A DNA stretch of 62,067 nt, counting the filler, from Hausera hauseri (taxonomy: Eukaryota): assembly GCA_046269625.1 (NCBI GenBank). It is 9 parts of 9 records of this genome, joined end to end, with 100 filler letters (N's around TTAATTAATTAA, not from the genome) between each part and the next. Parts side by side here need not be neighbours in the genome. Positions count along the whole stretch, not along the records: positions 52,730 to 57,007 come from JBJURY010661330.1; 8 more parts are not named here. The stretch is one strand, 5' to 3'. Position 1 is the stretch's first letter, and each line of letters opens with the position of its first letter. Of this stretch, positions 21,302 through 58,371 are shown one piece after another. The notes beneath the pieces are model-generated. The model was not told the origin of the DNA and ran no database searches. It saw only the letters and a list, made by a program, of their open reading frames with translations. Position numbers and translations under genes: made by a program.

Positions 21302-21332
<31 letters not shown>

Positions 21333-24690: not shown

Positions 24691-24964
24691 ACACTCCACA
24701 TAACACTAGTTCATGTAAACCAGCCCCCCCCCCCCCCTTTTACTGTAGACACTGTATATTTGTAAAGTTTGTAAATGTTTTCCAAAGTAGTACCATTCAG
24801 TATTTTGTAAATATGTTCAAAGACNNNNNNNNNNNNNNNNNNNNNNNNNNNNNNNNNNNNNNNNNNNNTTAATTAATTAANNNNNNNNNNNNNNNNNNNN
24901 NNNNNNNNNNNNNNNNNNNNNNNNCTGTTATTTTTCTAATCTGCTGCTTTCCATCTTCCATTTT

Positions 24965-25189
24965 CTAATATAGAACTTTTGTTTTCGTGTGATGTGTCAG
25001 AAGACTGTAGAAGGTTTTGCTCGTGATCATTTCAGCCGTTTTCTTAAGTCGGCTTCTCTTTCTACCGAGTCTACTACTTCTAGACGATTTCCGGTCTCTT
25101 GAACGTATTTTCCGATGTCTGCATTTCAAACGTTTTTTTCCCCTCGAGGTGCTGCTGGATGTACTTGACGACTGCGATTGTCTCCACAT
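24965..25189 (-). CDS. Small Arg/Lys/Ser-rich protamine-like ORF (uncertain)
   Basis: 74 aa, ATG start, very basic RS/RK composition. No family recognised. Confidence 0.3.
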   Translation of the reverse strand: MWRQSQSSSTSSSTSRGKKRLKCRHRKIRSRDRKSSRSSRLGRKRSRLKKTAEMITSKTFYSLLTHHTKTKVLY

Positions 25190-25241
25190 TATATGAAATC
25201 AACGTCGAATTGGTAATAGGCAACGGACAAATGAGTACGGA

Positions 25242-30200: not shown

Positions 30201-32470
30201 TAAGCATCTGTAATAGTTAGATTGTTTAATTGTCGATAATCGCCACATGGCCTATAGGTTTCATCTTTCTTTACCACTACATGGAGAGGAAAAGCCCACG
30301 GTGAATTCGATCTCCGAATGATTCCAGACCATTCCAGTTCATTAAATTCCTGTTCCACAGCTTTACCTCTGCGTGGCGACAAGGATCTGACCTTTTGCTT
30401 GATCGGCCTCTGATGCTCTGTTTCTATGTGATGATAAGTTGTGGATGGAAGCTTGAAGTTGACGTCCCTTGTAACTATGCGAAAGCAAGACGTTGTGACG
30501 TATAATTTAAGATTGGAGTCTAGGCACAAGAATGAATGAGGCATGTCATTAAATAGAACAGCTCCAGTGATTGATGAAAAGCAACTGGCATCGCTACTGT
30601 CGACGCCTAATTTGGATTTTTGTTTCAGAATAGATTTATGATCGTCGTTCATAATTGAAACATTACCGACTTTATCGGACATTTTTATAGATGACGAAGC
30701 GTTCAATAGGTTCATAGATTAGTGCAGTGAATTGCTCGCTATTGAGTTCCTGATATTGAGCTCCTGCTTACAAGACAGCTGTGTTTGCAATCGACCAATA
30801 GATCATTTGCGGCAAGAAAATCTGAGCCTATTATGAGAGATTTAATGTTGGCCACGTGGAACTTCCAGACAAACTTATCTGGTAAGTTGGCAAAAGTGAA
30901 AGTCAGTTCCGTGGTTCCTACAACATGCAACGGTTGACCACTGGCAGTAAAAAGCGATTTACAGGAAATCATAGTCGATTTAGAAACGAAGGATAAGGGA
31001 AGGAGCGAAAAGGCAGCTCCTGAGTCTACAAGGAAGTCGATATGTGAAGTATCTCTGCATAATAGTACAGATTTCAACAGAAAGACTGCAGAGGCGGTGT
31101 TAAAACGGCCAGAAGATTGAACGATATTGTCTGCGCCAGAATGTGCCGTAAAATCTGGCGGCATTATTAGTTTTTTGAAGGTTTTGGATAAAAGGAAGAA
31201 GAGGACGAAAAGCGAGGAGATTTATCTTTGTAATGTTTACAACCAGGCACGCATGACCTAGCCTGTTAATAAAACTTATTGTGGTAGACACAAATAGGAT
31301 TTTCCACAGCGCACCGTTCACCGTAGAAACGACAACCCAAAAAGCACTTCCTAGCATCCCTTCGCAGTCGCATATGATAGAAACAAGTCATGCGTCTGGC
31401 AGGTGAAATGGGTCGAGCACAGTGTCTGGAAATGCTTCTCTCCCTTCAAGGTCTGGTTTCTCTTCGTCGAGGCCCATTAAGATTATTTAATTGGGTAATA
31501 ATGGCCAAAATCGATTGCTGTAACTCGTTAAACTTTTGCTGCATCATTTGCAATTGTTGTGAAAATAAAGTGTTATCTGTGTGTGGTGTGTGAGCAGTTG
31601 GTGCAGCTACTGGTTGTGAAATATTAGATTGCAAAATGTCAAAACTTTTGTCTGCCAATAAAACAAGCTTTTGAAGGGCCGTTGGGTCGTCCACTACCGT
31701 GAGCAGCGCTCTAATGGAGGTTGGCAAAGATGAAAGAAAATACCGACGAATAAGATCAGCATTGTTTATGGGAGTGACGCCCATGGAGCTCAGTTGCGAG
31801 ATTGCAGTTTTAAGGAAATCCGACGGTTTTTGATTTCCAATTGCGTGTTCATTAAAGTATTTCTGAATTATGCTGTCAATAGAAAGGTCGGTGATATGCA
31901 GAACTGATTCATAAAACATATCATATGGGCTTAAATAAGTAAGCATATCAGCAAGATTGTTGATTTGCTGCTTGATATTAGTTGGAAGTGATATCAGCAA
32001 ACTGTTCGCTCGCAAAAAGGAGTCTGTGATATAATTGGCTTTAAGCCATTGCAAATGGAACTTAACCTATTGCGACTCGAATTGGTTTTATCAAGAAAAA
32101 ATCTGTGCAAGGAAGATTTGGATATGTAGTTGGTGTGGGGTCGGCAGGACGACGACCAAATCTGGTCTTGGTGGGGTTTTCCACATACGAGGGATCGGGA
32201 TCCGATCCACCCCGTAGGCAAAAGTGAAGAATGAGGTGGATAATTTTGGCGGAAAATGCAGAAAACTGGTCATGGACATTAAGTATAGAACCATGATGCG
32301 AGAGATAAAAGTCCGATGAGTTGAGGTGAGAAGATAGATGTGCGTGAAGATGATGAGAGGTATGAGTGTTTAGTACATAGAAGGTATGAAGGTGTGTATT
32401 ATTGAGGAAGATAAATAGGGAAAAGGGACGCAGCGCAGCGGCGGCGGTCACGCTCGACTCCTCACCCAAA
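27223..32470 (-). mobile_element. CsRN1-clade-like gypsy element, near full length and decayed: gag 31330-32100, PR 30739-31164, RT 29813-30715, RH 28998-29555, IN 28050-28990, PPT 27476-27489, 3' LTR starting 27475
   Basis: Gag IGNQKPS..FLSSLP..LADK with CHCC box CFYH-x9-C-x3-C. FLVDSGA, RPCGDYR, YIDD, TDAS, YSTFDRE, VHLDLVGPLP. G-rich PPT followed by TGTGGTGC. Confidence 0.92.
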
Positions 32471-32519
32471 TCATTAATAGCTCTGTCTTAATCCGGACTA
32501 GCATAGCTCTAAGATGACC

Positions 32520-33110
32520 TATGGCACTCATGTGAACTATAAGCGTAGTTAAGCATTATAAATGATGTAATGTCGATACGTAAATGTGTATCATAATTAC
32601 CTTTTGACAAAGGTAAATCGAGCAATCTTATTTGGGGTTTTTGCTTCAACGGAACTGATCGCATTGATCCTTGAACAGTATTGACAATTTGCTTTTTGTG
32701 GTCTATATCTGCCAACATTTCATGGAACTTTCCGTGGCATTGGGGAAAACCGTTTTAGCTTGAGATGTACGTGTAAGGACACTTTTGCTAAATAAATGCT
32801 ATTCAGGATCTCTCCCAGTTATGCATTTTCTACACGTCAATTGATATTCATATATTACTCCACTGAATAATTCAAATACATCGTGAATAATGAACAGGTT
32901 GTTATCCGGACAACATCCGGATTGTGAAAGATGAAACTGAGCCCGACTGTACAATACCGATGGTAAATATTCAAATTGGTATAGTAAATTTAATTCCTTA
33001 ACATCTACTGGCAGCAAACAAGGAACATAATTGAACGATGCTCCTGGTACAAAAAATGTAAGATCGAATATTTCCGAAATGTAGCCGCCGATTTCGACAG
33101 GAAATTCCGT
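32520..33110 (-). pseudogene. Roco-family COR domain fragment, frameshifted
   Basis: YVPCLLP, YQFEYLPSVLYSRAQFHL, PDNNLFIIHDVFE.FSGVIYEYQLTCRKC..RDP, LFSKSVLTR..QCHGKFH resemble the COR C-terminus of invertebrate Roco proteins. Confidence 0.6.
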
Positions 33111-33113
33111 AAA

Positions 33114-33412
33114 ACGCTTGTCAAGTTTACCATCAACCAAGTCTTGAGTTTGATTGGCCGATGTTTTAGCAGAGAAAATAAATTCTGAAATATATTCCAG
33201 TGGCATGTCTCGTTAATTTGTCGGTTAAAGATAGTTTTTTTGGTTCCAGTTGGACCGACACACATTACCGGTTTTTATTAAAAGGCAATTGTTCGGTCAT
33301 TTGAATAAGTTGAACAATATCGATTGTTGGAACAATTATATCGGACAATTTTGTTTCCGGTTTTATTATAAATTCATGCGTTTTTCATCCAATGAACCCA
33401 TTTCATTTTCTT
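33114..33412 (-). pseudogene. Axonemal dynein heavy chain fragment (start of AAA3, DNAH1-like), frameshifted
   Basis: KWVHWM..IIVPTID..PVMCVGPTGTKKT (degenerate Walker A)..EYISEF.FSAKTSANQTQDLVDGKLDKR. Confidence 0.85.
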
Positions 33413-33888
33413 TTCCTCCTGTTCGGATGACTGAAGAATTACTAGCAGTGGCCAAACCAGTACTGACTGGATTTATTCCGATGGCCAAATATTCCAAATT
33501 CATTTTGTCCAATGGTTCGAGAGACGAAAGATTTGGCCGATATTTATACCACTTGCTTAGAACAGTTATGTAAGGTTTCACCTTACAACAAACAAAAATA
33601 AATGTCCTAAACTTAAAATCGTAAAACTTAAAATAAATAACAAATTCAAAATTTACTGACAAAAATCACAAAATTGAAAATAAAACACTAATTTGCTAAT
33701 GATTAAAATTTAAACCTCAAAATCCAAATTTTACGGATTCACCACAATAACAAATGTCAAAACATAAAAGTACATAAATAAAAATTACNNNNNNNNNNNN
33801 NNNNNNNNNNNNNNNNNNNNNNNNNNNNNNNNTTAATTAATTAANNNNNNNNNNNNNNNNNNNNNNNNNNNNNNNNNNNNNNNNNNNN

Positions 33889-36800
33889 AAATTTTGGTAA
33901 AAAATATCATAGAGGAATTGAGAAATGTGTTGCGATATCTGGTCATTAAAACAAATCAAAATCGGGAGAATGAATTAAATAAGGCCACTAGTTTGGCAAG
34001 AAGGGCTGCCAGGAAGTTACCTCGAGAAGTGAACTGGTCTAAACTATACGAAAAAGAAGAAGAACATCAGAGTGTATTCCCCTTTGGTAACAATAGATTT
34101 GGAGACCTGTTACGAAATGTAATCGGAAATCGCAGGGAAAATGAATCGAATTTGTTAATTAACTTTCTGACCCTGATGATACTAACAAGGCAAATGGGCG
34201 CAGTTGCAGTATATGACTGCGACAAGTTTAGACTTTGGCCAGAAATACTCATTAATGGATTTGGAAATGTGCGAAAACGCGAGGCCCCACAGATTAAAAA
34301 CAAAAGAAAAGAATTATGTATTATACCAGCAACGCGGATTAGTTACCTTAGATGGAGTAGAATGTATGTTGCGACGATCTTGCAGCATCTTCCATTATGG
34401 GCTGGGATATGGACACTCTTCAATAATCAAGCCAACAATTCCACCAATTCCGATGAATTTAGAGCGTCAACATTGTAAGCAAGCTAGGGAGAAGGGAAGA
34501 ATAGAGTAGGACGCCATGGAATTAGAAATGCAACAAGAAAAAATAATCATGGTGTAGAAAGTAGATGCAGGAAGGTTAGATATGCACAGTGGGCATTGTC
34601 AAGGTGCCGAATACGATACCGGGAAAGGATTAGAGTCGAACGTCGTAGTAGTAGACTTTTATGAAACCGAAATGCGCGTACAGAAGGTGATGTTCCATAG
34701 CGTTACTAAGCCTTACACATAGAACCATATGTTCCACATTCAGGATGGCACATGTCCGTTTCGAAGTTCTGTAGTAATTTGGGAACCACCAACCAAGACC
34801 GATTGCAATTTTATCAGGATTAAAGAACTTAAATTTAACGAGACGACAGAAAAACGATATATAAGTAACACAGAAACTAATTCGAAAACACGGGAAAATG
34901 TTGCCGAACAGTCCACACCTACTATACTCATCTCTGATACTGACGGACTGAAGTTTGTGAAGAAAGATGTAATCACGAGATGCGACGTTATAATGCATGC
35001 TACTAACTATAAAGCATTTTTCGTCGCCGAAACGGAAATAAACGCCCGAACGTTTAAACGCGAGACTCAAGACATCCTGATCGAGAATTACTTGAAAAAC
35101 AGAAATGACTATTTCTACTACAATGGACAGGCCGGAATAGACGAGATATACCACAAGATGATAACCAATGATTGCAAATTATATTTGGAAATATATATAC
35201 GCCAATCCTGAGTTAGCGTCACCAATATCTCCGATGAAGGAAGGTGTTTCCTGACGAGTAACCGGAGAGGAAGAGAAGAGGTGTATACAAGAACTCCCAT
35301 TGATATATCAAGGCGAATCCAGATTATTAACACCAATTACCACAGTGTTGCGGCAAACGCCACCCAACCAACAATTTTGAGAGACTGTAAAACGAGCTTA
35401 GGAGAGCCGATGTTCAGTCGCAGCGAAACCGACTGGGTAAGCTTACCAAACGGTGGTATTATTGCACCACCTACCAAGCTGACAGGAACAAACCTGATAA
35501 AAGGGAATAACCGATGATAAATTTCAAGATACAGTCGCAAAAGGTATCTACCGATGTAAAGAAGTAGAGGCGTTTAGTAAATTCCTTGCTTTTCCCGTCA
35601 ACGTACGCACGAATTAAACACAGCGATACATACCATACTAGAGAACTCGCGCTATCAGTCAAAATGGCAGTCATTACTTGGCATCGGCTATTATAAGAAG
35701 GTAACCACAGAAATATTGTACAAATCTAGGGAAGATTCCTGATATTCGGGCAAGCCGCATCTGGATTTCTAGCAATATACTTTTTTATTCAATTATTAAA
35801 AGCCATAATTCAATCACTCATAAATGAATACGAGATATTTAGTTTGACAGGATTTTTGTGCAAAATTTCAACGGCTATTATTACACCTTTCGGCAAATTC
35901 TTGAAGGCTTATGATGACAGTAAATGGAAAACAAATGTAGTGCGACATGTTGGATATCATAATCCAAAACGGAAAAGACACACTCGATTACAGGCAAAAA
36001 TTCATAGATAGTAAGACACAAAGAAATAATTCTGATGATGACGAGCCTAAGGGAGGAGATGTCATCTCCAGGCCAACCCGGCATAAAAACTACTCGGTTA
36101 TGAAATTACCACTGACAATATTGCCGCCAACGGCACCTATATATGAAGACTGTAAGAAACAATCGGTGAGCTCGCACCAGACAGACGTTTATTGGAAGCC
36201 ATTTAACCTAGAGGATCCTTACGAAGGAACCAAACGCTACGAGGTATGGCGTAAAATCCATGAAACGGAAAGAAAGACTATTTTACATTGCTGCTCAGCG
36301 GTCGACGATTACGGTATAATCTGTTCACCTCGAGTATCTAAACCAAATGAAATGCAATCGATATTTACTCGAAGCTGTAAGACACGAAATCTCCAAAACC
36401 AAGATGTTCAGCCGTCAACTAGATACCAAAGAGTAGAAAATTCGAACGGTATAAATAACGAACTATACCCAATCGGAGAACTGAGACAGGTGGTCGACCA
36501 GCCAGTCGGAACTACTGAAGTCCCCATAAACGGCTACAAGGTATCCACAGTCCGACAGCCCCGTAAAGCACCGAGCTATTACGGTACGGTAATTGAAGGA
36601 AAATTCAATCGTGAAAATTCAATTAGAAAATTGGAATGTATATGCCTTAATAGACACAGGATCTGAAATATCACTGATAAAATACGATTCGATAGCGTAA
36701 TTTCTACGGAAACAATTGTGTCCACCTCCCTCAACAGACCCAGGCAGCATCGGAGCTTTTGGACAGTCATGGGAAAGTAAATTCCGTTGGATACCGGAAA

Positions 36801-39800
36801 TTCACATAATGGGACAATTTTTTCTTCATGAATTCTCAGTAATGGAGCAATTAATGGACGATAAGGTGTTGGGGTGTGACTTATTGAGACAACAACCTAA
36901 TATAGCAATCGATTTCAATGCAGGCAAGTTGATAGAACTTGGCCCAATAGAAGGAGTCAAAACCACCAAGGATAAAAAGTTCGGAGAAGTGTGGATCCCA
37001 GTAGATGAAAACATACCGCCCCGGACAGAAGTACTCATATATGCCCAAATACGTCAAGATGATGACCAGCCAGTATATTTTGAGCCGAAAGAATCGCTTA
37101 ATTCGAACCTTGATTTCAGTAATATTTTGACAACAGTATCGACAGGTCGCGTGCCGATCAGAATAGCAAATCACGCACCGACTCCTATCAAACTGTACGC
37201 AAATACCACGTTGGCACACACGTACCGAGTATCATCAATCACTATAGAAGGAAAACCCTATAAGGGTGCCGAATTTCCACCCCACGTCGAGACTAAATTT
37301 TCGCCCGAATCCTATTGTCGATTTTACGAATAACTTTGTCGTTATAGTTCAATTATTGCGAAAGATGAAGAAGATATTCGCAGAGCCAAAACTTTAAGGC
37401 TAACAGTTTCACTTAAGAAAAAGCCTGAATCCAACGACGAAATAGATCCTGAGGATCAAAAAATGCCGAAATGGTATTCTACTCCACATTCATTAAGACC
37501 AGAGATAACCAAGGAAGTCAAATGAATTTTAAAGGCCGACATAATTTGACCAAGCTACAGATCTTGGTATTCACCGATACTCATGGTTAAGAAAAAGGGT
37601 ACCGCTAAGCACCGATTTTGCAACGATTATTTGGCGTTAAATACGCTTATGCTGAAAAACTCTTTTCACTTACCATCGGTAAAGGAAGCTTTGGACAGAC
37701 TCACTGGAGCTAAATGGTTCACCACGCTCGATTTACAATCTGTATACTGGCAAGTAGAGATATAAAAAGAAGATCGTTACAAAAGGGCATTTACGACACA
37801 CGACGATATATACGAATTCAATGATATGCCATTTGGAATAACTACCTAACCGGCCATCTTTACCCGCATGATGAACAAGATGCTGATGGGATTAGAACAC
37901 GCGTTCGCCAATTTAAATGACGTTATGATTGCGTCAAAAACAGAAGAAGATCATTTAAAAGACATCGAAGGTACACTCATGAGACTGGAGTAGGTTGGAT
38001 TAAAACTGAATCCCAAGAAATGTAAATGGGCCCAAAACGATGTATCGTATCTTGGCCTTATAGTTGGAGAAGGAGGGTCAAAACTGGATAAATCATTATT
38101 GAGTAAAATATCGGATTGTATGGAACCTCAAAATCAGAAAGAATTAAGACACTGGTTAGGGCTGTGTGGGTATTATGCTACTTACGTACCAGATAATGCA
38201 AAGATAAACGCACCTTTATATCGCTTATTAAAAAAGGGGATCTAATGGAAGTGGACTCACATCGAACAGAAAGCTTTTAACGAAATGAAAAAGATTCTAA
38301 CTAGTGAACCTGTTCTGAAATATCCCGACTTCAACTTGCCGTTCATAATCAAAACATACGACATTAAAGAAGGTATCGGATATGAACTGGTCAAGAAACG
38401 AGAATATGAGGAATTGGAACACCCGATCGCATACGGAGGACGTTCCCTGAAGAAAGCAGAGAAGAACTATTCTGTTACGGAGTTAGAAACATTAGCGGTA
38501 AAGAAGGCAATGCGACATTTTAACGTGTACGTCTATGGACAAAAAATTATAATTGTTATTGACCATAAGGTAGTTACGACCTTAAAGGGTAGAGCGAATA
38601 ATCCAACCTGCAGACTTAACAGATGGATCGAGGAGATCTCACGTTATAATATTGAATTCCAATACAAACCCGGAAGTAAACATGTTGATGCCGACGCATT
38701 ATCGAGACTTAAAACCAAAACAAGTGCAGTCACAGTAATGAGGAAAGCCCACCTTGAGAATTTAGTGGAGAGGCAACGGACTCTTACGCTAGAGAAGGCA
38801 TTGAAAATTTCTGTTGAACAAAGAAAAGACAAGATTATACACCAAATTATCGAATTTATTGATACTAACCAAACACCAAAGGGTCATCAGTTACGAAAAC
38901 ACCTACGTCGTTATTGTCACAAGTATTAGGTTACTGGAAATTCGAATCACGAAAATGTGTTGTACTACGAACGAAAAGGACGAAAACTAGTCGTTATACC
39001 GAAAGGATTACGAGCGGAAGTGCTCATGGCCGAACATGGCTCATACTTAGCCGGACACGTCATGGAAAAAGACATTGGAAAGGATTTTAAATAAATACTA
39101 TTGGCCGAGTATTTACATCGATGTGAGAAATTGGGTAAATGCTTGTGAGGTGTGCGCAACCAAACAAAGAAAAGTGATAAACTATATTGCAAACTTAAAC
39201 CTATTAGTGTGCCGGACAGACCCATGTAGACTATGTCCATGGACACCGTAGGACCATTACCTACAACCCACAAAAACAACAGATACATTTTGACCTGTGT
39301 AGACCGATTGACTCATTTCGTCGAGCTTATAGCTCTATTAGACAAAAAGGCCGAGACCTTGGCAGAAGCGATAGTCCGAAAAATCATTTGCAGATATGGG
39401 CCACCCGAACAGATTTTGACAGACCGAAAAAGAAATTTCACGAGCGAATTGTTCGACAAAATTACCCAAATCTTTGAGATTGAACGACTTACTACTAAAG
39501 TTTATCATCCCCAATGTGATAGGATGGTTGAACGAATGAACGCAACCGTTATAAAAATCTTATCAACAGTAGTCGCAAAAGACCAGAAGGATTGGGATGA
39601 GTTCTTAGAAGGTACGCAGTTTGCCATTAATACTACTCCACATCCTGCGACAGGATTCACTCCATTTTTTATGATGTATGGAAGAGAAGCTGCGCTTCCC
39701 ACAGATTTAGGACTGATCCCATACACAACGCAAACGGAAGATTTAGAAAAAAACTTTGCCGAAGTATTGCAAATGAGGTTACATAAGTGTTGGGAAATAG

Positions 39801-41180
39801 CCAAGGAGTTGTTTAAAGAATATAAGGAACAATTCAAGAAGCAATACGATAAGAAGGTAAAACCACACGATCTGCAACCCGGAAATTGGGTTTACGTACA
39901 CTACCAAGTGGCATAAAAAAGGCACATCTCTTAAACTCATCAGCAGGGCAGATGACTTTATGAAGTTACTAAGGTTACACCAACCACAGTTTGCATAAAT
40001 AAAAGTGGCAAGGAAGAGGTTATATCAATTCAAAGAGTAGTTAAGATAGAATTAACACCGAACAAACGATATAATTTGCGTTGAAGCCAAACAAGTAAAA
40101 AAAGAAGACGTCATCTATAGTAACGAGACCGGTATCATATGTACAAATAGTCCTGGCTTTATCGTTAATCGCTTCGTATGTACCGACAGTAAAGTCAATA
40201 ACTCAAACTGGAAAATTACAATATGCAGCAAGACGGAGAAATATCCATAACTTACAGTCACTTAAAGTGTACCATATGGATTGTAGAAAGCCATGTGCTT
40301 TGTTCGAAGCAAGTGAGATTAATCCGGACCATGTAAAATTTCAAATAATATTTTCTAGTGAAAATACGATGAGAACATGCGATCTTCCGTATGGAGAACG
40401 TAAAAAATGTTACGAACTAGATTTTGAACGAAATTATCGATACAACATTCAAATGTTTTACTATAATCTACCCGGAGCCCACACCTACATAGTTACTGAT
40501 TTTTTAATAAGGATGCCTAAACGAAATGACACTGAGATAATTCAGAATACTGACCCGTTCAAAAGTCTTTTGGATTATAATATTATTGCATTTTATAAAG
40601 ATTTTAAGAACCCATGCATTCGAATCGAAACCAAAATAGAACTACCGACAGGCAGACAGATTTCTGTCCGATTTATACCATTAAATACTTTGACTCCTGT
40701 TCCTGAGTATTGTTACCTAGTTCGAGGATGACCTACTGTGTTCTGTGAACTGCAACTAGGACAGAAGTATCAGTTACAACTCGATCTGTACAATATATAC
40801 CCTGGAGAGAAAAGCATCTATCTGAGAGGATATTGTCCAAAAATCGGAATATGGGAGCTTCCACCTCTAACCACTACGACGAAATCGTCTACTGTTTCGA
40901 GCACAACTTTCGCCACTACGATTGCTACCTTGGATCGACTGGCCGAAGAAAAACCAAGTAGTATACCAGTTAAGATTTTTGCAAAAAGTGACAAGATTCT
41001 ATTCTACGTTGAGGAAACGTTAATTTACGACGTTGAAATTGAATTTCGTACTCTGTATACCAATCAAATCGTAACCTTAAGGAAGAATAGTCCGGAAACA
41101 CAATGCCGATCATTACGACCGTAACATGACTATATAGTCAGAATCACTACACAATGCGTGTGAAGATATAATTGAGAACG
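33889..41180 (+). mobile_element. Gypsy copy 2 (same family as 6150-14883): G 34150-35910, PR ~36600-36950, RT ~37480-38070, RH 38285-38710, IN ~38930-40080
   Basis: Collinear protein homology to copy 1 along the whole contig, with independent disabling mutations. Confidence 0.95.
40125..41160 (+). pseudogene. Post-integrase signal peptide, FN3-like repeats and Thr/Ser-rich linker, copy 2
   Basis: VQIVLALSLIASYVPTVKS signal-like segment. Repeats end ELDFERNYRYNIQM, ELQLGQKYQLQL and SLRP*HDYIVRIT (FN3-like L.P...Y.V.I). TTTTKSSTVSSTT linker. All in one frame. Confidence 0.65.
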
Positions 41181-41475
41181 GAAGTTCTAAATTTAAATAA
41201 GAAACACTTAAATTTAAATTAAGATTTCAATTTGGAATTGACTAAAAAATTTAATTAAATTTATTTAATTAAAATTTTAATGTAATATTGAAAATCTAAT
41301 TTAAATTTGGAAAATTTGTTTCAAAATAAATAATTTGGATTATAATAAAAATTTCTACTGGTGTTTACTTTTCAANNNNNNNNNNNNNNNNNNNNNNNNN
41401 NNNNNNNNNNNNNNNNNNNTTAATTAATTAANNNNNNNNNNNNNNNNNNNNNNNNNNNNNNNNNNNNNNNNNNNN

Positions 41476-46413: not shown

Positions 46414-47080
46414 GATTGGTTTTTAACGCATCAATATCCGATTTGTCAATTTGGGCCCAACCTGTGTCGTTTGATATGAAAATGGTAATTGGATTTGAGT
46501 ATGAAGAATAAATCTGTCCAGTTCGAAAATATTGCTGATCGATCTGATTAGTTTTCGTCATCGTTTCAAAAGTTTGCCACATGGTATTTGCCGTGGAATA
46601 TAACGGATTATTTGACAAATATTTTAAAAAGTCGACGGATTGACCGAAAAGAAAAACGTGGTCAACAACATGATAAACCTGATTTGCGACGACTACCGTA
46701 TATAAAACTTGTCCTTGGTTGCAAAAACTCTGAAAGACATGTATCTCAGACAAGAGGAAATTTAACTCACTGGAGTACCCGTCGTCAAAATCATATTTGA
46801 TTTAGCTTGATTCTGCACATAAAACATATTTGAGGGCGTCACAATTGGACTGAAGTTTGTCCAACTATTAACAGTACCAACGTAATTCATCTTCGGTGTC
46901 TTTCCGATAAACATGTGCCGTCTTAACAAATCCTTGATATCCACTGTACCAATTTGACTTATTCCATAGGCATTGTTAAAAAATGTGCATATTGTCAAAT
47001 AAGTATCACTTCCTAGTGCTAGAATTTCAGAAATACTGCTCAAATCCATAGATTGCTGATACATTTCCATCACTTTTCAT
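46414..47080 (-). pseudogene. Fasciclin (FAS1) domain gene fragment, frameshifted
   Basis: LTICTFFNNAY..IKDLLRRHMFIG, VYHVVDHVFL (H2-like) and PITIFISNDTGWAQI (H1-like) suggest two FAS1 repeats. Confidence 0.55.
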
Positions 47081-47351
47081 TGGATCCCATTTTTGACGCC
47101 ATTGTGGGTTTTGGGTTGTATCGAAGAATTCACATAATTCCAACATTAAATGATAACAGTGAAGAAATATAAGGCTAAAGTTTTATTTTATTTTTTTTAA
47201 TCAATCTTCAAATCAATTTCATAACCTATCAACACATCTATTATATAATATATATAATGACATATATACATATCTATATACAGTTCATGTGAGCTTTGAT
47301 GCGCTTTGAATATTCGATGAATATTTTTGTTTGTTGGAAGAACAACAATAT

Positions 47352-48062
47352 TTAATCCATAAATTCGAATCGTCGTAATCTTGATGAGAACAACGGTACG
47401 ACGAGGCAAAACGACAAAGGTGCACCAATTCGTCGGCAAAACAAATAACAATAAATAAAAAAATATTTAAAAGTCCTTGTTGGACACAACACCTTGGTGT
47501 GACACGAAATAGTTTTAGACGTTTTCTGACACCAATTATTAAAGTCAGGAATGGTATCCTGGAAATTATCCATTAATTCCAGATCTGCAAAATCCCCTAT
47601 GTAAAATGCGGCGATTTTCTCACTAGAATAAATGTTGGGACGCATATTCCGCATTGCTATCAGTAATGGAGGCTTGAAATCAGGATTCAGACTATAGGTT
47701 TTCCAAATAAAACACAGAAATAAACTTCGTTTAGAAAAATCTGTTCTTTTCGAAATTTTAATTAAAGCTTCGGAAACCTTCTGTGTTAAAATTGTATTCA
47801 ATGAAAAAAATAACAATAGTTCGGAACTTCGATCAAACAGCTCATCAAATAAATTGATACCAATGTAATCAGAAAAACGGCAATCTACATCTTGGAATCT
47901 CAATGTTAAAAATTGAAAACTTGCGCCGATTTTTAAAACTCCGATATTAGTTAAGCACTGNNNNNNNNNNACTGCACAATATCCATCGATCGAGAGTAAA
48001 AAAAAATATCGCCAAAAAGAATTATAAAATAACACAAGATCAAAATAGGGCGCAGCAGTCAC
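47352..48062 (-). CDS. Unknown ORF containing a 10-N gap
   Basis: 236 codons open in AT-rich DNA. No motif recognised. Confidence 0.3.
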   Translation of the reverse strand: MTAAPYFDLVLFYNSFWRYFFLLSIDGYCAXXXXQCLTNIGVLKIGASFQFLTLRFQDVDCRFSDYIGINLFDELFDRSSELLLFFSLNTILTQKVSEALIKISKRTDFSKRSLFLCFIWKTYSLNPDFKPPLLIAMRNMRPNIYSSEKIAAFYIGDFADLELMDNFQDTIPDFNNWCQKTSKTISCHTKVLCPTRTFKYFFIYCYLFCRRIGAPLSFCLVVPLFSSRLRRFEFMD

Positions 48063-48124
48063 TTAAATTCAAAATTCAATTCATAAGCTAAAGATTTATT
48101 TACATTATTAAAACAAATTGTTTT

Positions 48125-48760
48125 TTAAGAATAAAGCCAATTGAGAACAACCGTCATGAAAAGACAACTCGTAACAAATACATGGGATAAAGAGTTTTGA
48201 CGAACAATTTTCGAAAACAGAATACAAACACAAAAAACAAATAAACAATTTCCGAACAACGCAACCACGGTTTGAACTGCTATATAGATTGGAAAATTGC
48301 TCTTCGTAATTATATCTTGTGTCTTATATTTGTGTTCCGGTGAATTGGACCGAGTAAGCACTGAACAAATATACGTTCCTGCGTGAGACTATTGAATGTT
48401 ACTGAGTTTCGAATTATTAACGTAAGAATTTGAGCTCTTCATTGTCCCTCCATTAGTATCCAAATCCAATGACCCTTGAAGTATTTGGTACCTGTTACCA
48501 GCCAAACTGATTACTTCTTGTGACTCCAACGTGTCATCTGATTCATCCAATTGATGTTTGAGTTCATTCTATTGGCGTAACAGTTCAGATTTTCTTCTCT
48601 TCCAGCTTTTTCATTTTATCAGTAAGCTGATTCATTTCGGTGCATTGAAATTCGGAAAACATTAACAGGATCGTTACTTTTGATGAGGCCATTTGGACCG
48701 GAAAGGTCAAGGTCAGATTGGTCTAAGCCATTATTAACAGTTATGTTTGCTGGTAATTGG
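48125..48760 (-). pseudogene. Ig domain plus TM fragment, FGFRL1/nou-darake-like
   Basis: PANITV..G, ISLAGNRYQIL..SYVNNSKLSNIQ*SHAGTYICSV (Ig D.G.Y.C), then TM IYIAVQTVVALFGNCLFVFCVC. Confidence 0.55.
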
Positions 48761-48812
48761 TCTTTTTGTTGACTTTTTGACAGGCTAGAAGCCGCAGCTA
48801 TTCGTAGATCAT

Positions 48813-51800
48813 TGTGAATATTCGTAAGCTAATGATACGATTCTCAAAGCGGGAGATCGGGACCCGCCTATGGATCGGACGCTACGGCAACGGACACCGG
48901 GCCGTGCCAAAACAAATAGGCCAAAGGGCACCGGCTGCCATGAGCACCACATCACCCCCTACCGTGGCAAAGTGAAAACTATAAAGATTAAAACAGGCGG
49001 AAAAAAGCGCTAAACGAGAAAGTGTATATGTCAGGTGGTCATAGTGTGGACAAGACGTTGGGTACATTCTATTGATTTTTCCCTGCTATATTTGCTGAAT
49101 GTGACTGCGTGTTTTGTTTTTATCCTGTGTTTGCTTGCAGAGTTTGAAGTTGGAGAAAAAAATATCGGCTTTTGTTGTGAGTGTTGTGTCGTGCGAAGAC
49201 GAGTCAAAAAGAAGAGAGGAAGAAGAAAGCGCAGTACGAAGAGAAATTGTGGGAGATTGGTGCTTGAAGGTGTTTAGGAAAGTGTTTGAAGACGAAGGAA
49301 TGATAAAAGGTGTAGTGGAAGATAAAGGAAAAGAGACAGAAGTTGGAATTGAATTGGGTGAAAGAGTGGAAGTGGAAGAAGAAATAGAAGTAGTTGTAGA
49401 GGCAGGAAGAGAGACAGGGATAGAAGCATATGAGGAGGAAGTTGCGGAGCGGAAATGAGAGGGGTAGAAGGCGATGTGTGAGGAGAAAGGGAGAAAGAAA
49501 GCGCCGAAGATGAGGAAGGTGTGGTAGGAGAAGGAGAAAAACAAAGAGAAGATGGCAAAGAGGTAAAAAACGGAAGAAAGCAAGAAGATGGAGAAGGCGA
49601 AAGAAAGTAGTTGGAAGGTGGTGTGCAAGAGGTTGGAATAATGAAAGGGGTGGATGGAGAGATTGGTGAAGTAGAAGTGGTGTTTGATGGAGGAAGTACT
49701 GTAAAAGGAGAAAGCAAGTTCTTATGAGGGGATGAAAGAGGTGTGAAAAGGCTTGACGGTGCAAAATCGGATGGGGAAAAATAGGCTAAATTGTGAGAAA
49801 TTAAAGTAGAAGTTTTTGGAAAGTGGATTAAGAAATTGAGCAGAGATGGAAGGTAAATTATTGGATTGCTGCGCATCGTGTAACAATGTTGGTGGAGAAG
49901 TGGTTTCGATGGGAAACGTGTCGTCAATGAAGAAACCGGTTTAGCGTTGTTCATGTGGACTGTTACTTCTTTGTCGTCTTTGAGTATGATGATGTTGTGG
50001 GAGTGTAAAAGAATTACTTTGTAAGGGCCGACATATTGAGATTGAAATCCACACGGCGTCTGATTCTTTAGCCAAACGAACTTGGCAGTATGTAAATCGT
50101 CGGGTATGCAAGGTTTATTTCCGTGTAATAGTCTACAAAATGAGTCTTTGCTGATCTCAACGAAGTGTTTCTGGGCCGCTTGTATGCTCTCGTCTGTAGA
50201 AGTATTGTCCAGCTCAGCCAGCTCGAATAATGGTCTGATTTAAGTACCAAATAATGCTTATGAAGGTGAACAGCCTGTAGAAGTGGATGGTGTGTTCCGT
50301 CAGCCAAGCAGAACGTACGGAAGGAGTGTAGTCCAACTGTAATTTGACTCAGCAAGGATTTTGAGAGACGTTTTTATAGTCTGGTGAAAGCGTTTGAGAA
50401 GGCCATTCGATTGAGGATGATATGGTACGTGTGAATGTGGTTAATTCCCAATCGATTGACACAAGCTTTAAACAGGTTGAATTTGAACTGTGGGCCTTGG
50501 TCCGAAATGATGTAGCGAGGTGATCCAAACCTGCTGATCCAAGTGCTGATGAAAACGTCTACGATTGTTTCTGTGTTGGTGCTCCAAAGCGAAACAGCCT
50601 CTGGCCATCGCGAGGAACGGTCCATCATTGTGAAGATGAACTGATTTCCATTGTCTAATGATAGTGGGCCTACAAGGTCAATGCGAACAGATTCAAAACG
50701 AGACGTGCAGGAAAAATGATACAGTGGTGGCTTTAAGTGCTTAGTAACTTTGTATTTTTGGCATGCCACATACTGCCTAACCCATGCCTGCACGTCATAG
50801 CGCATCGACGGCCATACTACTTGGCGTTGTAAGAGTCGAAAAGTAGCCTTGGCACCAGGATGGTGCAACGAATGGATGTTGTGGAATGCTTCATTTTGAA
50901 CCGATTCAGAAAGGATGACTTTAGGATTATTAGGTTTGGAAGTGTCAGAGGCCACACCGTCGATGGTTTTGCACGATTTAAAAGATTTAAGAATGTCAGG
51001 AGGTGGCTGGTTTTGCTGAAATTTGAACTGAGGAAAAAATGGTGTAAAATCAGTCGAGCTGACCGATCGGGACAATAAATCAGCTACTAAATTGTCGACT
51101 CCGTTTAGTTGTTTAATTACAAAATTAAATGTTGACAAATACGATATTTGCCTCTCCTGACATGGAGAAGGCGATTTCATGGTGAGAACTTGAAGAAAGA
51201 GCTTGTGGTCCGTTTGTATTGTAAAAGTTCGTGCAGTTAGCAGATGTTTAAAGTGTTTTACGACAAGGACCATTGCAAGCAATTCTCGGTCAAAGGTGGA
51301 AAATCTTTGCTCTTGTGCAGTGAATTTTCGAGAAAAGAATTCTAATGGTTCACGAGATCCATTTTTGGCTTGATGGAGGACAGCACCTGCAGCTGCTGTG
51401 GATGCATCCGTGGTTAAGAAAAGTTCTGCATGGGAGTCGGGATAGGCTAGGATTTGCACGGTTTTGAATTATCTTTGAGGTGATCGAAAGCGTTGACTAG
51501 CTTGGCGGTCCATTGAATAGGCTATTTTTTCTTGCCAGAGCTTAGTGATGCTAATGAAGCGGTTAGAGTGGAGCAGTGTGGAATATACTTATGAATAAAG
51601 TGCAAGATTCCGAGTAAAGAACGTATCTCTGTTGATATACGTGGTAGCTGTATGTTTTTGAGCTGTGTCATGCGCTCTGGATGAGGAAAATATCCGGAGG
51701 AGCTAATGACATATCTTAGGAAGTTGACCTTATGTCGAAAAAAAGAGCATTTGCAGAAATTAATTTGAAAGTTGTTTTGGTGCAAGCGCTGGTAGATTAA

Positions 51801-52629
51801 ACGTAAGTGCTCAGAATGTTGTTTCGAGGAAGATGATGCAATTAGGATATCATCGATATAGGGATAAACAAAGTCTAAATTTGAGAGAACTGTATTAATA
51901 TGCCTTTGGAAAGTCTGTGAAGCGCTACGGAGTCCAAAAAGCATGAAGAGGTATTCGAAAAGGCCGAAAGGTGTAATGACAGACGTTTTCGGAATGTCTG
52001 CTGGGGCCACCGGAATTTGGTGGTATGCTTTGTGAAGATCAATGCAGGAAAAACGTTCGAACCATGGAGCCTGTGAAGGATATCGTTGATTAATGGCAGA
52101 GGGTAGGCATCCATGGTTATTACGATGTTGAGTTTGCGGTACTCACCGCATGGGCGAAAGGTACCATCTTTTTTTGGAAACACATGCAGTAATGAAGACC
52201 ATGGGGATTTGGATCATCTGATGATTCCTGATTTTTCCTGTTTGAGAAAGTCAGCCTCCACTGCCTGTCTGCGGCGAGGCGATAGCGAGGGGACCTTTTG
52301 ACGTATTGGTCTTTGATGTGCTGTTACTTTGTGATGGAAGGTAGATTGAGGTGGTACGAATGATTTGTCTTTTTGCAACAGACATGTTCAGGAAAACGAA
52401 ATATATTTCTGTAAGTCAGAGGGCAACGATGAAAAGTTTTCAGATGGTGTCGATGCATCGTGACTGGATGCAGTTGAAATATGAGTTGTAGATAAGGTGT
52501 TGCGACAAGGTGGTATTAGGTGCAGGATGTTCGTGTTGAAGATGGTGTTGGTAGCTGTACTATCAGTAATAGGTGCCACGCAGTTGGCAATATCGTATTT
52601 GTTGCCGTAATAAAAATTTCTATATAATG
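48813..52629 (-). mobile_element. CsRN1-like gypsy pol (RT 51520-52330, RH-IN 50000-51459), S/P/T tail, PPT 48952-48963, LTR starting 48951
   Basis: RPCGEYR, YIDD, TDAS, FSTFDREL, IDLVGPL, SDQGPQF. PPT followed by TGTGGTGC. Related to the contig D elements; distal LTR end uncertain. Confidence 0.9.
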
Positions 52630-53326
52630 NNNNNNNNNNNNNNNNNNNNNNNNNNNNNNNNNNNNNNNNNNNNTTAATTAATTAANNNNNNNNNNNNNNN
52701 NNNNNNNNNNNNNNNNNNNNNNNNNNNNNTGGTTTGATTTTGAAATGGGTCATTATTGGACCAGTTCGTCGAAACAAGTATCAGGAAGTTTCCCACGAAT
52801 TACCAATGGATAATTCTGATACTGACAAGGAACACGCTACGAAAAAGAGTATGAAAATAATGTAAAAGGAGTGCAAGGAATTTAGTTCGAGAGAGTGATC
52901 TAAATGAAGAAGAAGCTAATAAAAGAATTTAATTTATATCGGCAAAAAAAATGCTCGAATACAGAATAAAAAATGGCAAATTCGCAAAATTGAAGGAATT
53001 TATATTTATGAATTATATGAATATTGATATGATTATATAAATAGATATATAAATTGATATATATAGCTAGAAATGCCAAGGAAAATCCTTTCGATAATTA
53101 TTGACAAATTGAATGAAAATATGAAATACAAATTTGTAATGTCTGATCAAGAAGTCCGTTATGGACAAAATCAGATACGTTAAAATTTGAGCGAAAAATT
53201 AACAGATTTGGAGAAAATGAGGTATCAATCGACACGGACAAATTCGAGGGCTATGCTTTTCGCTCCTCACTAAAAAATTTAGAAAATTCGAGCCAGAAAA
53301 GGACTCAGAAACATAGACGATATAAA

Positions 53327-54808
53327 ATGTCCCAATCGTCTCAATTACATCAACAATTACAACATTATTTTCTACCGGAAGAATTTGTTCAAAAAGACCA
53401 TGGATTATTAATTGTTCCAAACTACTTACAGATTGTTAAACTGGAAGATGAAGATGCACAACTTATTAACGTTATGTCTGGCTATCGTAGTGTTGCTGTA
53501 TTAATGTGGCATAATAATCAGTCTTTATATTGGTCTGAACTTGGTGAAAATGCTCATGAAAAGATTCCAGGATACTTTGAAAAAACATGGTCAACTCCAG
53601 TAATTTTGGGGTTAAAGGACAATGATGTTGAAAAGGTATTTGAGTGTTATGTAAATAGTATCGTTATTGGTTATCGTTGTTTTCTTCGTTTAATGCACCC
53701 TGCCAGGGATTGTGTTGTGTGTTTGTATGAATGTATGCCTGATAAAATCAGTATGTATGTTTGGAGCCACAAAATTAATGGTGGAGAGAATCCCCCGGAG
53801 AGGAGCACTCCGTTAAAAATGGCTAGGTATGATGTAAAAATTAATCTAAATGTTTTTTCATATCTTTATATATTTGATAAGGGGTTTTGGGGATTTATGG
53901 GGACAAATAAATCGAACCTTATGGAATTTCGGCTATATTTAAAGATGTTCAGAACAAAGGAGTCTAGCGGGGCAGTGATGGATATGAAAGAAGGTAAATG
54001 CGGAGATAGGTTTTCTCTCCAAATGATGATTTATGTTCGGCAAAGGAGATCGGTGCTGGGATTAGGGGATTTAAAAGGAAAAATACAAATAATAAAGGGT
54101 AACATGACTCATGGAATAAAGTTTGCTAGTAATGGGCCCGGCAAACCACTGATTGAAAAATGGGTGATTGGAGATTGAATATTATTTATTATTCATACAA
54201 ATTCTCAATTTTATGGTTTAAATATATACTATAAGATTATTATAAAACTTCCATTTTATGGTAGCAGAGCGTGGTTTGTGCTCTGTATCGTGATCCGCAA
54301 ACACAAACCACGTAATGCAATTGTCTTCGAAGGTCTGTATGTCCTTCTTGATTTCGGCCACTTTTTCCTCCATCACAGTATGTTTGAGGCGGGAGTCGGT
54401 ACCAAGCCTGTAAAAGTTGCAATAGAGGATGGAAAGTGCAAATTGTGCAACTTTGAAGGTAAGGTACCGATGACGCCTTTGGAGGAATTTAAAGTCTTGT
54501 TCGGCAATTATGGTAATATTGAAGAGAAGAAAACGTCTAGTTATGACATAGAAAACAACAGGCGTAAAAACGTAAATTTGGGAAAAAATAAAATATTCGA
54601 AAAGAATTTGGAGGAGGAAACAGGAATCAGAAAGTGGGAAGAAAGAAATCAGACAATTTCAAAGGATGTGAAAGGACAATCGCTAGAAGAAAATAAAGGA
54701 AAAGGAAAGCCAAGGAATCCGAAGAAAAATGTCAAATTAGAGCAGTACGAAATAGAAAGGATAAAGGGAGAAAAGACAGACAAAAATCCAGCTGTACATG
54801 TCGAAAAA
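53327..54808 (+). CDS. Unknown leader of the BEL/Pao polyprotein (one in-frame TGA at 54176)
   Basis: ORFs 53327..54178 and 54278..55237 share a frame, and the sequence between them has no other stop. Confidence 0.6.
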
Positions 54809-55030
54809 ATGGAAAAACAGATAATTATACACTACGATGGCCGATACTTCATAGCTGATGCAAGCGACACCCTGTCACATCTCAATCTAATCGAACTTAT
54901 CAAGGAAAAATTGAAGATCAAAAATGAATTCATGATGTTACACTGCGGGAGGCCGTTACGGACCAACGAAGAAGTGGAAAATTTAAAACACGGATCAACA
55001 ATTCAGGTGATGTTTCGACTGAAAGGAGGC
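54809..55030 (+). CDS. Ubiquitin-like domain ending in RLKGG
   Basis: 74 aa: MEKQIIIHYDG..LIKEKLKI..MLHCGRPL..LKHGSTIQVMFRLKGG (compare ubiquitin STLHLVLRLRGG). Confidence 0.85.
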
Positions 55031-57007
55031 AGTGAATTGACTGCAGAGGCACTCGAAGAACGCATTGCAGAACGGCGAAGACCTATAAATGAACTAGCTT
55101 CAATTAGAAGGAAACTAATGGATATAAATTTGAATGAACACGATTACGAAGTATGTTATCAGAGTTACGAAAGAGTCTTCGCAAATGTCCAAGAGGAGTT
55201 GTGTTTGTTGACTACTGCAGCTAGAAAGAGAATATAACATTACTAGAGAACGAAATGGAGAGACTGGATGAACAAAATGAGAAAATCAACATGATCATTT
55301 ATGAACGCAGCCTAAGAGACAACAAATGGGTCGCCAACACTACGAAAAAGGCAGTGGATATTGAAATAAAAGAAAAATCAAATCTGCCGAAGTTACAAAG
55401 GTTGGAGCTGCCACAATTTGGTGGAGTAGTAGTTGAATATGATCGTTGGAGAAGAACATTTGATACGTGTGTGAACAAAACGTCAATGTCTACCACTTGC
55501 AAACAGCTGCAGTTAGAAAGGTGCCTTTATGGAGAACCGAAAAGGCTGATTGAGAACTTCGATTTATCAGAGGAGGGCTATAAAGCTGCCATAGAAAAGC
55601 TTGACTCCTACTACGGAGGTAAACAACGGTGTTACGCCGCATTTATTACTGAGGTGATGCGTTTTAAACCGATTAGAGAAGAAGACATCGTAAGTCTGGA
55701 TCGATTCGTAGCATTATTGGATGGCATAACGGTAAGATTGAGAAATTTAGGAAGGAAAGAAGAATTAGGTGGAGGGCTATTATACCAAAGTCTTGTAGAG
55801 AAACTCCCAGAGTCTATAGTATTGTTATGGGAGAGACATGCCACCGAAAAGAGGTTGGATCGGACGGTTGGAGAATTGAAAACGTGGATAGAATTAGAAG
55901 CGAGCGTTCGGAGGAACACAATCGAAAGTGTTAGGGGTATAAACACTTTTAACCCAGGAAGAGATTACGAGTATGATAGGACGTACGGTAAAAGTGAATC
56001 GACAATTGAAAACGGTTCCCCGTTCATAATAAAAATCATGCATCTTCGAAAAGGCATGAATTTCAAAGGAAACCGCAAGGAAGTTTCTATGTAAACAAGA
56101 ATGTCGACAGGAATGGAACATCAATTCCTAACGAAACGGAAAAGGGGAGTGGTATTAAATCAATGAACAAAGCCGAAAACCAAATTTGCTGGGAGTTTGA
56201 GAAAAGCGGAAATTGCAGATTTGGAAACAAATGCAAATACCTACACGTTAATGCAGGAAACAATAAAGCGCGAGTTTGCACGTATTATATGAAGGGGAAT
56301 TGTAAATATGGGGAGAAATGCCGTTATGCTTATGATTCGCTGTCCAAGAAAGGTACACCTAAAAGACAAGAAAGAACCTTTTACACTGTGCAAGGTGGTG
56401 AAGAATTAAGGAAAGAAAAAGGCGAATGGGAAGATGATGTTACAGTGGCGCAAGTTAGTTCCTACGTAACCCGACGATCAGAAAAGGCGACAACAGGAAA
56501 TAAAATAGCCTTACGAACGGTAGATGTGTGGCTGGAAAATGGAGAACGAAAAGTAAAGGTGTGTATGTTGTTGGATGATGCGAGCACAGAGTGTTTTGTG
56601 AAACGCTCTGTTGCTGAACTATTGAAATTAGTCAGTACTCAGGAGAATGTATCCGTTATGGTGGTAGGTGGGAAAATGACAAAGTCAAAGATGGAACGAG
56701 TAAAAATGAATTTAAGAAGTAGGAACGGAGAGGTTAATATCCCATTTGAAGCATTAGTATTACATGATCCTACAGGAAAAATGATGGCTGTAAACTGGGA
56801 GATCGAGAAGAATAGGTGGCCACATTTGCGGAATATAAAGTTCGCCGCTCAAAATTCACCGAAATCGGTCGATGCGATTATCGGTGCGAACTATATACAA
56901 TTACACAGATCCATAAAGGAAATAACGGGAAAGACAAATGAACCGATATCTAGGCTAACCCAAATTGGGTGGACATGTGTTGGGGTAATCGGAGATGAAA
57001 AGGAAAG
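55031..57007 (+). mobile_element. BEL/Pao gag (DUF1759-type), CCCH fingers and protease (DUF1758-type); cut by contig end
   Basis: LPKLQRLELPQFGG..W..F, LYGEPKRLIE, Y..AIEKL..YG, KLP. Protease LLDDASTECFV, WPHL..I, DAIIGA, TQIGW. Two frameshifts. Confidence 0.9.
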
Positions 57008-57630: not shown

Positions 57631-57775
57631 ATGGAGAATATATTTAGCTATTTCTGTGTGTTGACGTTCATGTTAAGTGGCCTTATAAATGCACAAATCC
57701 GATACTCAATTCCAGAGGAGCTGGAGAACGGGGCATCAGTCGGTGACATTGTCCAGGATTTGGGTCTGGATCTGA
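57631..57775 (+). pseudogene. Protocadherin 5' end (signal peptide and start of EC1), truncated; vertebrate-type
   Basis: MENIFSYFCVLTFMLSGLINAQIRYSIPEELENGASVGDIVQDLGLD; homology stops at a poly-A run. Confidence 0.85.
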
Positions 57776-58371
57776 ACAAAAAAAAAGTAGATGAAGGGGG
57801 AAGTTTGGCACCACCTTACACATTGTAAACCCACTCCAGCACCCTCCTGCTCATTGCAGGAAGTTAGGAACAATTTGACTGACAATGGGGCTAAAATTGT
57901 AGTAAAAATTCCTAAATCAACTGTATTGACCCCATTGTCTATTAGAAGGTGGATGATTTAATTCCTACCTGAACATACACTTCAAGCCGACCAAAGGTTC
58001 GACCTCATGAGTTTTTAATTATGCAGTTTAATTCTCAAAACAGATATTACTGTGCAAGCTTTCAGAAGACTGTACACATATATGTTTGAAGTTTTGGAGC
58101 AGGCATACTGGCTGTGGCTTCCTTTGTCATTTGTTTTTGTGTTAAAAAAAAAAAAATCTGTCCTGGTAAATCTGAGCAGTACAATGAGTAAACATCAAAT
58201 TGAGGTGAAAATTATGAATACAAATTACAATTACAGGTTTTGGGTAAGGTCAAGCAAATATAGGGAAATTATATTTTACAATTTGCAATATAGGTTTATA
58301 AATGTGTGTTGCAAGCAGAATATAGTATATAAAATAGAGATATAAAGTATAGAAAGGTTAAAATGTGTTGC

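Follow-up and report, generated by a model that had tools for sequence, protein, structure and literature searches.

A tandem pair of CCCH zinc fingers occupies the nucleocapsid position of Gag in a lineage of BEL/Pao retrotransposons. The fingers lie between the capsid and the protease, the triple Cys-His box of Pao nucleocapsids has been lost, the carriers form a clade, and one of them is an intact Gag-Pol protein. The pair probably serves as the RNA-binding module of the nucleocapsid, RNA binding being predicted by analogy with cellular CCCH proteins. The lineage was detected in a window of 62,067 nt (i.e. the whole stretch of DNA that was analyzed), which consists of nine records joined by N spacers that we treat as unrelated.

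The CCCH-bearing record (positions 52730-57007; 4278 bases, 37% GC) ends just past the protease. In a search of longer proteins it obtained five matches, the best being P0005 (1016 aa, 54% identical), an unbroken Gag-protease in which both CCCH fingers are complete. On the plus strand of the record, the N-terminal helical part of Gag (55031-55416) is followed by a BEL/Pao capsid-like domain (DUF1759, 55417-55845; Pfam PF03564, E = 1.1e-14), which is read in another frame than the fingers. The Pao-type aspartic protease (56505-56984, plus strand; Asp_protease_2, E = 0.012) shares the frame of the fingers, displays LLDDAS at 56568 and IIGAN at 56877, and is 71% identical to that of P0005 (118/166 residues). 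In total, the gag sequence occupies three frames, being interrupted near 55.2 kb and at 56.0-56.1 kb; the copy is a decayed one. Both flanks of the break near 55.2 kb are 64-67% identical to the continuous P0005.

Contigs of two public sequencing runs (DNA-type), X1 and X2, were aligned to the record. Position 56218 in finger 1 was covered by 13 X1 contigs. One X2 contig of 349 nt covered the two fingers without a gap, differing at 47 positions, and one X1 contig had the finger 2 stretch swapped for 169 unlike letters. The aligned contigs show a diverged multicopy family. The best reading is that this family belongs to the BEL/Pao retrotransposons and that the record holds the 5′ half of one of its decayed copies.

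Finger 1 (56187-56246, plus strand; C-x8-C-x5-C-x3-H) and finger 2 (56277-56333, plus strand; C-x7-C-x5-C-x3) are ten residues apart. The initial annotation had placed both motifs here, between capsid and protease, and motif and Pfam searches located them at the same positions, downstream of DUF1759. In the Pfam scan, zf-CCCH_4 (E = 6e-14) and zf-CCCH (E = 1.1e-11) each matched two stretches above the curated cut-offs. When the ORF was shuffled, two such motifs occurred in none of 100,000 shuffles and one motif in 28. Window and P0005 share 24 of 52 residues over fingers and linker, compared with 15 of 45 in the stretch before and 16 of 57 in the stretch after; the surroundings of the fingers are rich in Lys and Arg. 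The last ligand of finger 2 is Tyr in the window, and His in P0005 as well as in two further relatives described below, P0038 and P0189. Given this missing His and the 169-letter swap in one X1 contig, finger 2 may not be needed in every copy.

The absence of a CCHC array, also claimed by the initial annotation, extended to the other reading frames. The three Cys-His patterns published for Pao (PMC554778, partial text) were all absent from the six frames of 52730-57007. An HMM derived from the Cys-His boxes of 61 relatives, which gave 84 bits for P0054 (a positive control outside the training set), scored below 0 bits on the window ORFs and on three frames of 55800-56600, and no higher than 0.3 bits on the window and the proteins P0005, P0038, and P0189. 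The triple box is considered the hallmark of the Pao nucleocapsid, though Tas is without it (PMC554778, partial text).

Relatives of the element were sought by an HMMER scan of 1.84 billion representatives, of which the best 150 matches were examined. P0189 is a Gag-Pol of 1926 aa encoded by a single ORF, comprising a ubiquitin-like head, DUF1759, two CCCH fingers, and a protease with LLDDAS. Its Pol contains RT (YMDD), RNase H (DAS), integrase (HHCC; core D(63)D(47)E, counted from motif positions), Peptidase_A17, and DUF5641. As all catalytic motifs are intact, a CCCH Gag exists in an element that is catalytically intact by motif. Capsid and protease of P0189 are ~45% identical to those of P0005. 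Also among the best 150 matches were P0038, whose sequence begins within finger 2, and P0111, a distant protein with two CCCH fingers that belongs to the same cluster as P0189. The CCCH clade is based on three independent database clusters (P0005, P0038/P0187, and P0111/P0189) and the window; the sequences of the relatives are gene calls on contigs only a few kilobases long. In the window, P0005, and P0189, finger 1 begins with C-W-x-F-E. Spacing of finger 2 and linker length vary among elements (second finger x7; linkers of 10, 10, and 3 residues).

Among 67 relatives with both capsid and protease, 63 carried CCHC, two the CCCH pair, and two neither; this set was gathered by similarity to the CCCH elements and includes some cluster mates, so that the counts indicate rarity among near relatives and are not a census. 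Of 154 retrieved proteins, 138 aligned to the Pao-type protease. Six further candidates (P0045, P0074, P0085, P0126, P0130, and P0142) were rejected as CCCH carriers, their loose matches overlapping ordinary Pao boxes. Scans of metagenomes and viral contigs returned no DNA loci of the relatives. We also noted that P0040 is a Pao Gag-protease with a predicted THAP-like finger in front (residues 1-110, by eye), which may be a gene-model fusion.

Phylogenetic trees were computed on capsid and protease with the finger region excluded. From the 67 proteins, eight (four near-duplicates and four very distant ones) were removed to give a set of 59 rows, and subsets of 28 and 22 rows were hand-picked to span it. 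P0005 and P0189 were sisters with support of 100/99 under LG+G4 (28 rows) and again 100/99 under a mixture model (22 rows). A quick mixture tree of the 59 rows supported the CCCH group with 99 and the ubiquitin group with 94, accompanied by long-branch warnings. The window joined the CCCH clade with its capsid in the capsid-only tree (98/99) and with its protease, together with P0038, in the protease-only tree (98/94). Since both single-domain trees unite the CCCH elements, a single origin is likely. The finger pairs of the window, P0005, and P0189 had one another as best match, ahead of 16 multi-CCCH proteins, in keeping with a swap to CCCH fingers that arose once. P0189 itself forms a long branch outside the main group of Pao relatives compared, and its Pol shares 31-41% identity with the 32 other Pao Pol regions.

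A ubiquitin-like (beta-grasp) domain precedes Gag in the window (54809-55030, plus strand). It is in frame with the Gag start and ends in RLKGG (55016-55030). An AF2 model of this head (pLDDT 59) resembled ubiquitin in Foldseek (prob 1.0, E = 6e-4, TM about 0.6), and in the ESM Atlas ubiquitin clusters were retrieved at 0.87-0.89. The head alone had no match in Pfam, and its sequence matches in the PDB were summed weak repeats; the assignment thus relies on fold search and relatives. The predicted beta-grasp fold and the C-terminal GG together identify the head of the window as a ubiquitin-like domain. Identity to ubiquitin structures is ~20-27%, which leaves cleavage by host enzymes uncertain.

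P0005, P0189, and P0042 have the GG at the same place as the window, and they are the three proteins with a GG-ended head among 62 that contain a capsid and 100 or more residues upstream of it. P0042 combines near-canonical ubiquitin (residues 1-62; Pfam E = 3.8e-11) with an ordinary triple Cys-His box. The branch uniting P0005, P0189, and P0042 was supported with 96/98 (LG+G4) and 93/88 (mixture model), and the grouping of P0042 was kept after dropping either CCCH protein (98/99 and 99/97); its place as sister did not receive a star under the mixture model or in either single-domain tree, and branches are long. Because this sister has the head together with CCHC, the head was probably gained first and the fingers swapped second. 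Upstream of the head, its frame is open for ~200 codons (54179-54808, plus strand) across the primer site; the two Met codons there, at 54380 and 54470, differ in most aligned X1/X2 copies and are thus doubtful as starts of Gag. In P0189, about 125 residues precede the ubiquitin-like head.

Ubiquitin-ribosomal proteins and the ubiquitin inserts of pestivirus polyproteins have a layout that is cut by host deubiquitinases. The elements resemble such fusions in that a ubiquitin fold ending in GG stands right ahead of another protein. They differ from them in that this protein is a retrotransposon Gag and in that the head is strongly diverged in the CCCH elements and near canonical only in P0042.

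A probable 5′ LTR of about 1.1 kb spans 53140-54254 (plus strand). Its presumptive ends are a TG at 53135 or 53140 and a CCA five bases before the primer site. No 3′ LTR occurs within 52730-57007, and we infer the 5′ LTR from contig depth and the primer site. At bin 53159, depth rose from 16-154 to 1482 in X1 and from 0-9 to 59 in X2, values that do not equal copy number. BEL/Pao elements are bounded by two LTRs and a target-site duplication and have a polypurine tract; of these, the record covers the 5′ end. BEL/Pao LTRs measure 0.2-1.2 kb, with tRNA-Arg or tRNA-Gly as primer (ICTV, PMC8742986). In place of these primers, the record has a tRNA-Met-type primer-binding site (54259-54270, plus strand), which occurs once in the window. 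It is identical to the 12-nt tRNA-Met site of GalEa/CoRex Copia elements (PMC3587641, partial text), and its first 11 nt match the tRNA-Met(i) site in PMC1797187 (partial text); the assignment compares it with published sites rather than with host tRNA genes. There were no tRNA genes within the window, and a hairpin over the primer site was not significant (z = -1.5). In the stretch 54243-54285, X1 and X2 contigs go back 43 bases, with 29 other letters between. The resulting tandem unit of ~72 bases includes the LTR end and the primer site and has the highest X1 depth of the record; a short high-copy derivative of this unit may exist.

Upstream of the primer site and within the repeated unit lies an orphan ORF, termed ORF X (53147-54178, plus strand; 343 codons from stop to stop, 283 aa from the ATG at 53327). 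It is intact and has stayed open though gag is broken twice; the longest ORF in 2000 shuffles had 184 codons. ORF X had no homologs in Pfam, PHROG, or proteins of 155-496 aa, and in the ESM Atlas it obtained only scores of 0.84 or less. A match to beta-propeller blades (Z = 5.4) was discarded as uninformative, the single-sequence AF2 model having a pLDDT of 36. If the LTR extends from about 53140 to 54254, ORF X is LTR-encoded. Possibly, then, ORF X is encoded in the LTR; alternatively, it belongs to a tandem upstream element.

The elements share with BEL/Pao (Belpaoviridae) the DUF1759 capsid, found in the window, P0005, and P0189, and the LLDxxS...IG protease. In the window, LLDDAS and IIGAN conform to the Pao protease motifs LLDxG/S and xIG (PMC554778, partial text). 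Further shared features are evident in P0189, i.e. a single Gag-Pol ORF, the order PR-RT-RH-IN, Pao-type RT and RNase H, a widened D-E spacing of the integrase, Peptidase_A17, and DUF5641; the window record ends before this region. In contrast to BEL/Pao, the elements have a tandem CCCH pair instead of the triple Cys-His box, a ubiquitin-like head, a tRNA-Met site, and a long ORF in the probable LTR. Judged by capsid, protease, and, through P0189, Pol, the CCCH lineage is of BEL/Pao descent, but as both the triple box and the tRNA-Arg/Gly primer are missing, we file it as a derived variant and not as a canonical member. The nearest named matches, all of them unclassified elements, came from the molluscs Haliotis, Mercenaria, and Dreissena, the nemertean Lineus, and the sea spider Nymphon. 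BEL/Pao elements have been described from metazoans only (PMC2774666, partial text), and the host is accordingly presumed to be an animal.

In BEL/Pao, the CCCH pair is a real feature at the level of a lineage; LTR elements of other groups also provide examples of unusual Gag fingers. In Saci-2, a Ty3/Gypsy element of Schistosoma mansoni, a Gag CCCH motif is reported to stand in place of CCHC (PMC2582038, partial text). Saci-2 belongs to another superfamily (gypsy-like according to PMC554778, partial text), and the likeness is one of description, not of compared sequences. The CsRn1 clade has a CHCC Gag finger (PMC2582038, partial text), and Troyka a widened knuckle, CX2CX8-10HX4C, where CX2CX4HX4C is the BEL norm according to its author (PMC12440569, partial text). 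As in our case, these are entire LTR-element lineages with a non-standard Gag zinc finger; theirs, however, are variants of single motifs, whereas the pair described here matches cellular CCCH families and has no trace of a Pao box. With CPSF30/Yth1, TIS11d/TTP, and muscleblind, the pair has in common tandem C-x7/8-C-x5-C-x3-H fingers with the aromatic residues of the family, but it is embedded in Gag, its linker has 10 or 3 residues, and finger 1 has the shared C-W-x-F-E start.

A full-text literature search, which covered neither Repbase Reports nor GyDB nor most subscription papers, did not turn up any description of a BEL/Pao Gag with CCCH or ubiquitin. In the parts of the sources available to us, the term "CCCH" was absent from PMC2774666, "zinc" from the BEL/Pao survey PMC3118150 (its supplementary family sequences aside), and "zinc" and "ubiquitin" from the mollusc survey PMC6238403. 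A preprint (bioRxiv 10.1101/2023.10.20.563377, partial text) mentions CCCH, Pao, and gag in unrelated contexts.

The CCHC knuckle is regarded as the common nucleocapsid motif of retroviruses and LTR retrotransposons. An intact Gag-Pol with an unrelated finger fold amounts to a natural experiment on whether RNA capture, chaperoning, or both are essential to a nucleocapsid, for which P0042, with the same head and the old knuckles, offers a matched comparison. The CCCH lineage suggests that a borrowed module can sustain genome packaging. Where annotation relies on the triple box, elements of this kind will go unnoticed or be mistaken for host CCCH genes.

CCCH fingers, e.g. those of TTP/TIS11d and CPSF30, bind single-stranded RNA via zinc-held aromatic pockets. 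In an ancestor of the family, the triple Cys-His box was lost and a tandem CCCH pair came to lie between capsid and protease, most likely once. In the mechanism that we propose by analogy, Gag-Pol would be translated as a single chain. Host deubiquitinases would cut the ubiquitin-like head after its GG, giving Gag a defined start, and the protease of the element would release the domains. The CCCH pair may bind the element's own RNA and mediate its packaging during particle assembly, and the basic stretches beside the fingers may do the chaperone work, annealing tRNA-Met. RT and integrase would work as in other BEL/Pao elements.

According to the initial annotation, the nucleocapsid module had been replaced by a captured host domain of TTP or makorin type. 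The replacement is borne out by the slot in the window, P0005, and P0189 and by the clade that they form. The proposed donor received no support of this kind, the pairs of the elements matching one another above the 16 multi-CCCH proteins and, among solved structures, matching CPSF30 best (E = 3e-12), with TIS11d (E = 4e-7) and muscleblind also among the matches. Makorin was not named among these structures, and the 16 CCCH-only matches contained no RING family, an observation that touches makorin only indirectly. TTP/TIS11 proteins have two C-x8-C-x5-C-x3-H fingers, an 18-residue linker, and conserved lead-in peptides; the elements depart from this layout with their x7 second finger and short linkers.

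The search for a donor among the 16 multi-CCCH proteins pointed to no clear source. Instead of deriving from a host gene, the fingers could have been brought in by recombination of co-packaged RNA from a second mobile element, be it a Saci-2-like Gypsy, a tyrosine-recombinase element, or a LINE ORF1, an origin that we take seriously without favoring it. It concerns provenance only and is compatible with the nucleocapsid role. CCCH-like fingers occur in Ngaro and in some LINE ORF1 proteins; our literature search found no paper on these. A transposon donor is conceivable since a CCCH Gag has been reported for Saci-2 (PMC2582038, partial text). It would also agree with the fact that no host family stands out, the 16 matches being mixed multi-finger proteins and the PDB matches being spread over CPSF30, TIS11d, and muscleblind. 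However, the fingers exceed the cut-offs of cellular CCCH families, and no CCCH Gypsy or LINE protein was recognized among the best 150 HMMER matches.

A further question is whether all members of the clade carry pol. The part of P0005 that aligns with Pao elements ends about 25 residues past the protease, and ~300 intron-free residues of CFAP58 (about 690-993) follow in frame. This tail matched residues 142-441 of solved CFAP58 (E = 3e-39) and Pfam CFAP58_CC (E = 1.7e-18), a fusion for which transduction of a host mRNA is a possible explanation. P0038 and P0187 exit the Pao alignment at nearly the same point into unrelated sequence and show no RT. As P0005 and P0038 are without RT after the protease, the window's subfamily may not be autonomous. 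The window, P0005, and P0038 might accordingly represent a non-autonomous gag-protease element, whose Gag would package its own RNA, whose Pol would be supplied by a relative such as P0189, and in which spliced host mRNA would stand in place of pol; we put this forward tentatively and consider it rather doubtful. The intron-free, in-frame CFAP58 tail in the place of RT and the common exit point speak for such a subfamily, but the same proteins could result from a frameshift, from chimeric assembly, or from transcription of an insertion in the CFAP58 gene, and the window record, which stops at 57007, is silent on pol.

For the CCCH pair itself, a role other than the nucleocapsid one would be that of a regulatory or counter-defence module. 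It would control how stable the element's mRNA is or how it is translated or localised, or it would lure away host CCCH restriction factors as a decoy, and the basic linker would do the packaging. Some LTR elements have zero CCHC arrays (PMC2774666, partial text), and, as Tas has no triple box either (PMC554778, partial text), zinc fingers are not always needed. The Lys/Arg-rich flanks and the variable spacing and linker of finger 2 (10 vs. 3 residues) would also fit. We nevertheless consider this unlikely: the pair sits exactly in the nucleocapsid slot, its gain coincides with full loss of the triple box in all carriers, and an accessory module would more likely be found beside a kept box. 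That the pair is an accident of one dead copy, i.e. an inserted host CCCH exon or an assembly chimera, would suit a 4.3-kb contig that is frame-broken twice and has no His in finger 2, but is hardly credible given diverged copies spanning the fingers in two runs and intact in-frame fingers in P0005 and the full-length P0189 (short of a contig of the latter that happened to be a chimera with its junction at this very site, a very unlikely event).

Beyond the nucleocapsid role that we prefer, the clade may have been rebuilt stepwise from cellular parts, acquiring a deubiquitinase-cleaved head, then the CCCH pair, a tRNA-Met primer, and an LTR-encoded accessory protein, with one offshoot that dropped pol and carries spliced CFAP58 mRNA fused to gag-protease in the manner of transducing retroviruses. 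As a whole, this scenario is speculative and improbable.

Several other records of the window also contain mobile elements. A decayed Gypsy-type element is present twice (8200-14880 and 33889-41375; copies 74-88% alike); in it, RT and integrase are preceded on the same strand by a piece of a Monjiviricetes-type fusion glycoprotein (8872-9327, E = 9e-11). Two more elements of the Gypsy type, also decayed, gave matches for RT, RNase H, and integrase at 24925-33788 and 46414-52629 (minus strand). The region 14984-24824 comprises two records, the first of which encodes a dUTPase (15309-15860) and a DNA polymerase B of the protein-primed type (18162-18857, minus strand) and is presumably Polinton/Adintovirus-like. 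An ORF at 23576-24118 looks related and has no Pfam match. A protocadherin-like gene start (57631-57777, plus strand; Cadherin_2, E = 1.5e-7), which we take to be vertebrate-like, breaks off after 49 codons, where unrelated repeat-like sequence takes over; the records may therefore stem from more than one organism. Finally, ~5 kb of degenerate CT/AG microsatellite (1280-6240) give rise to long spurious ORFs.
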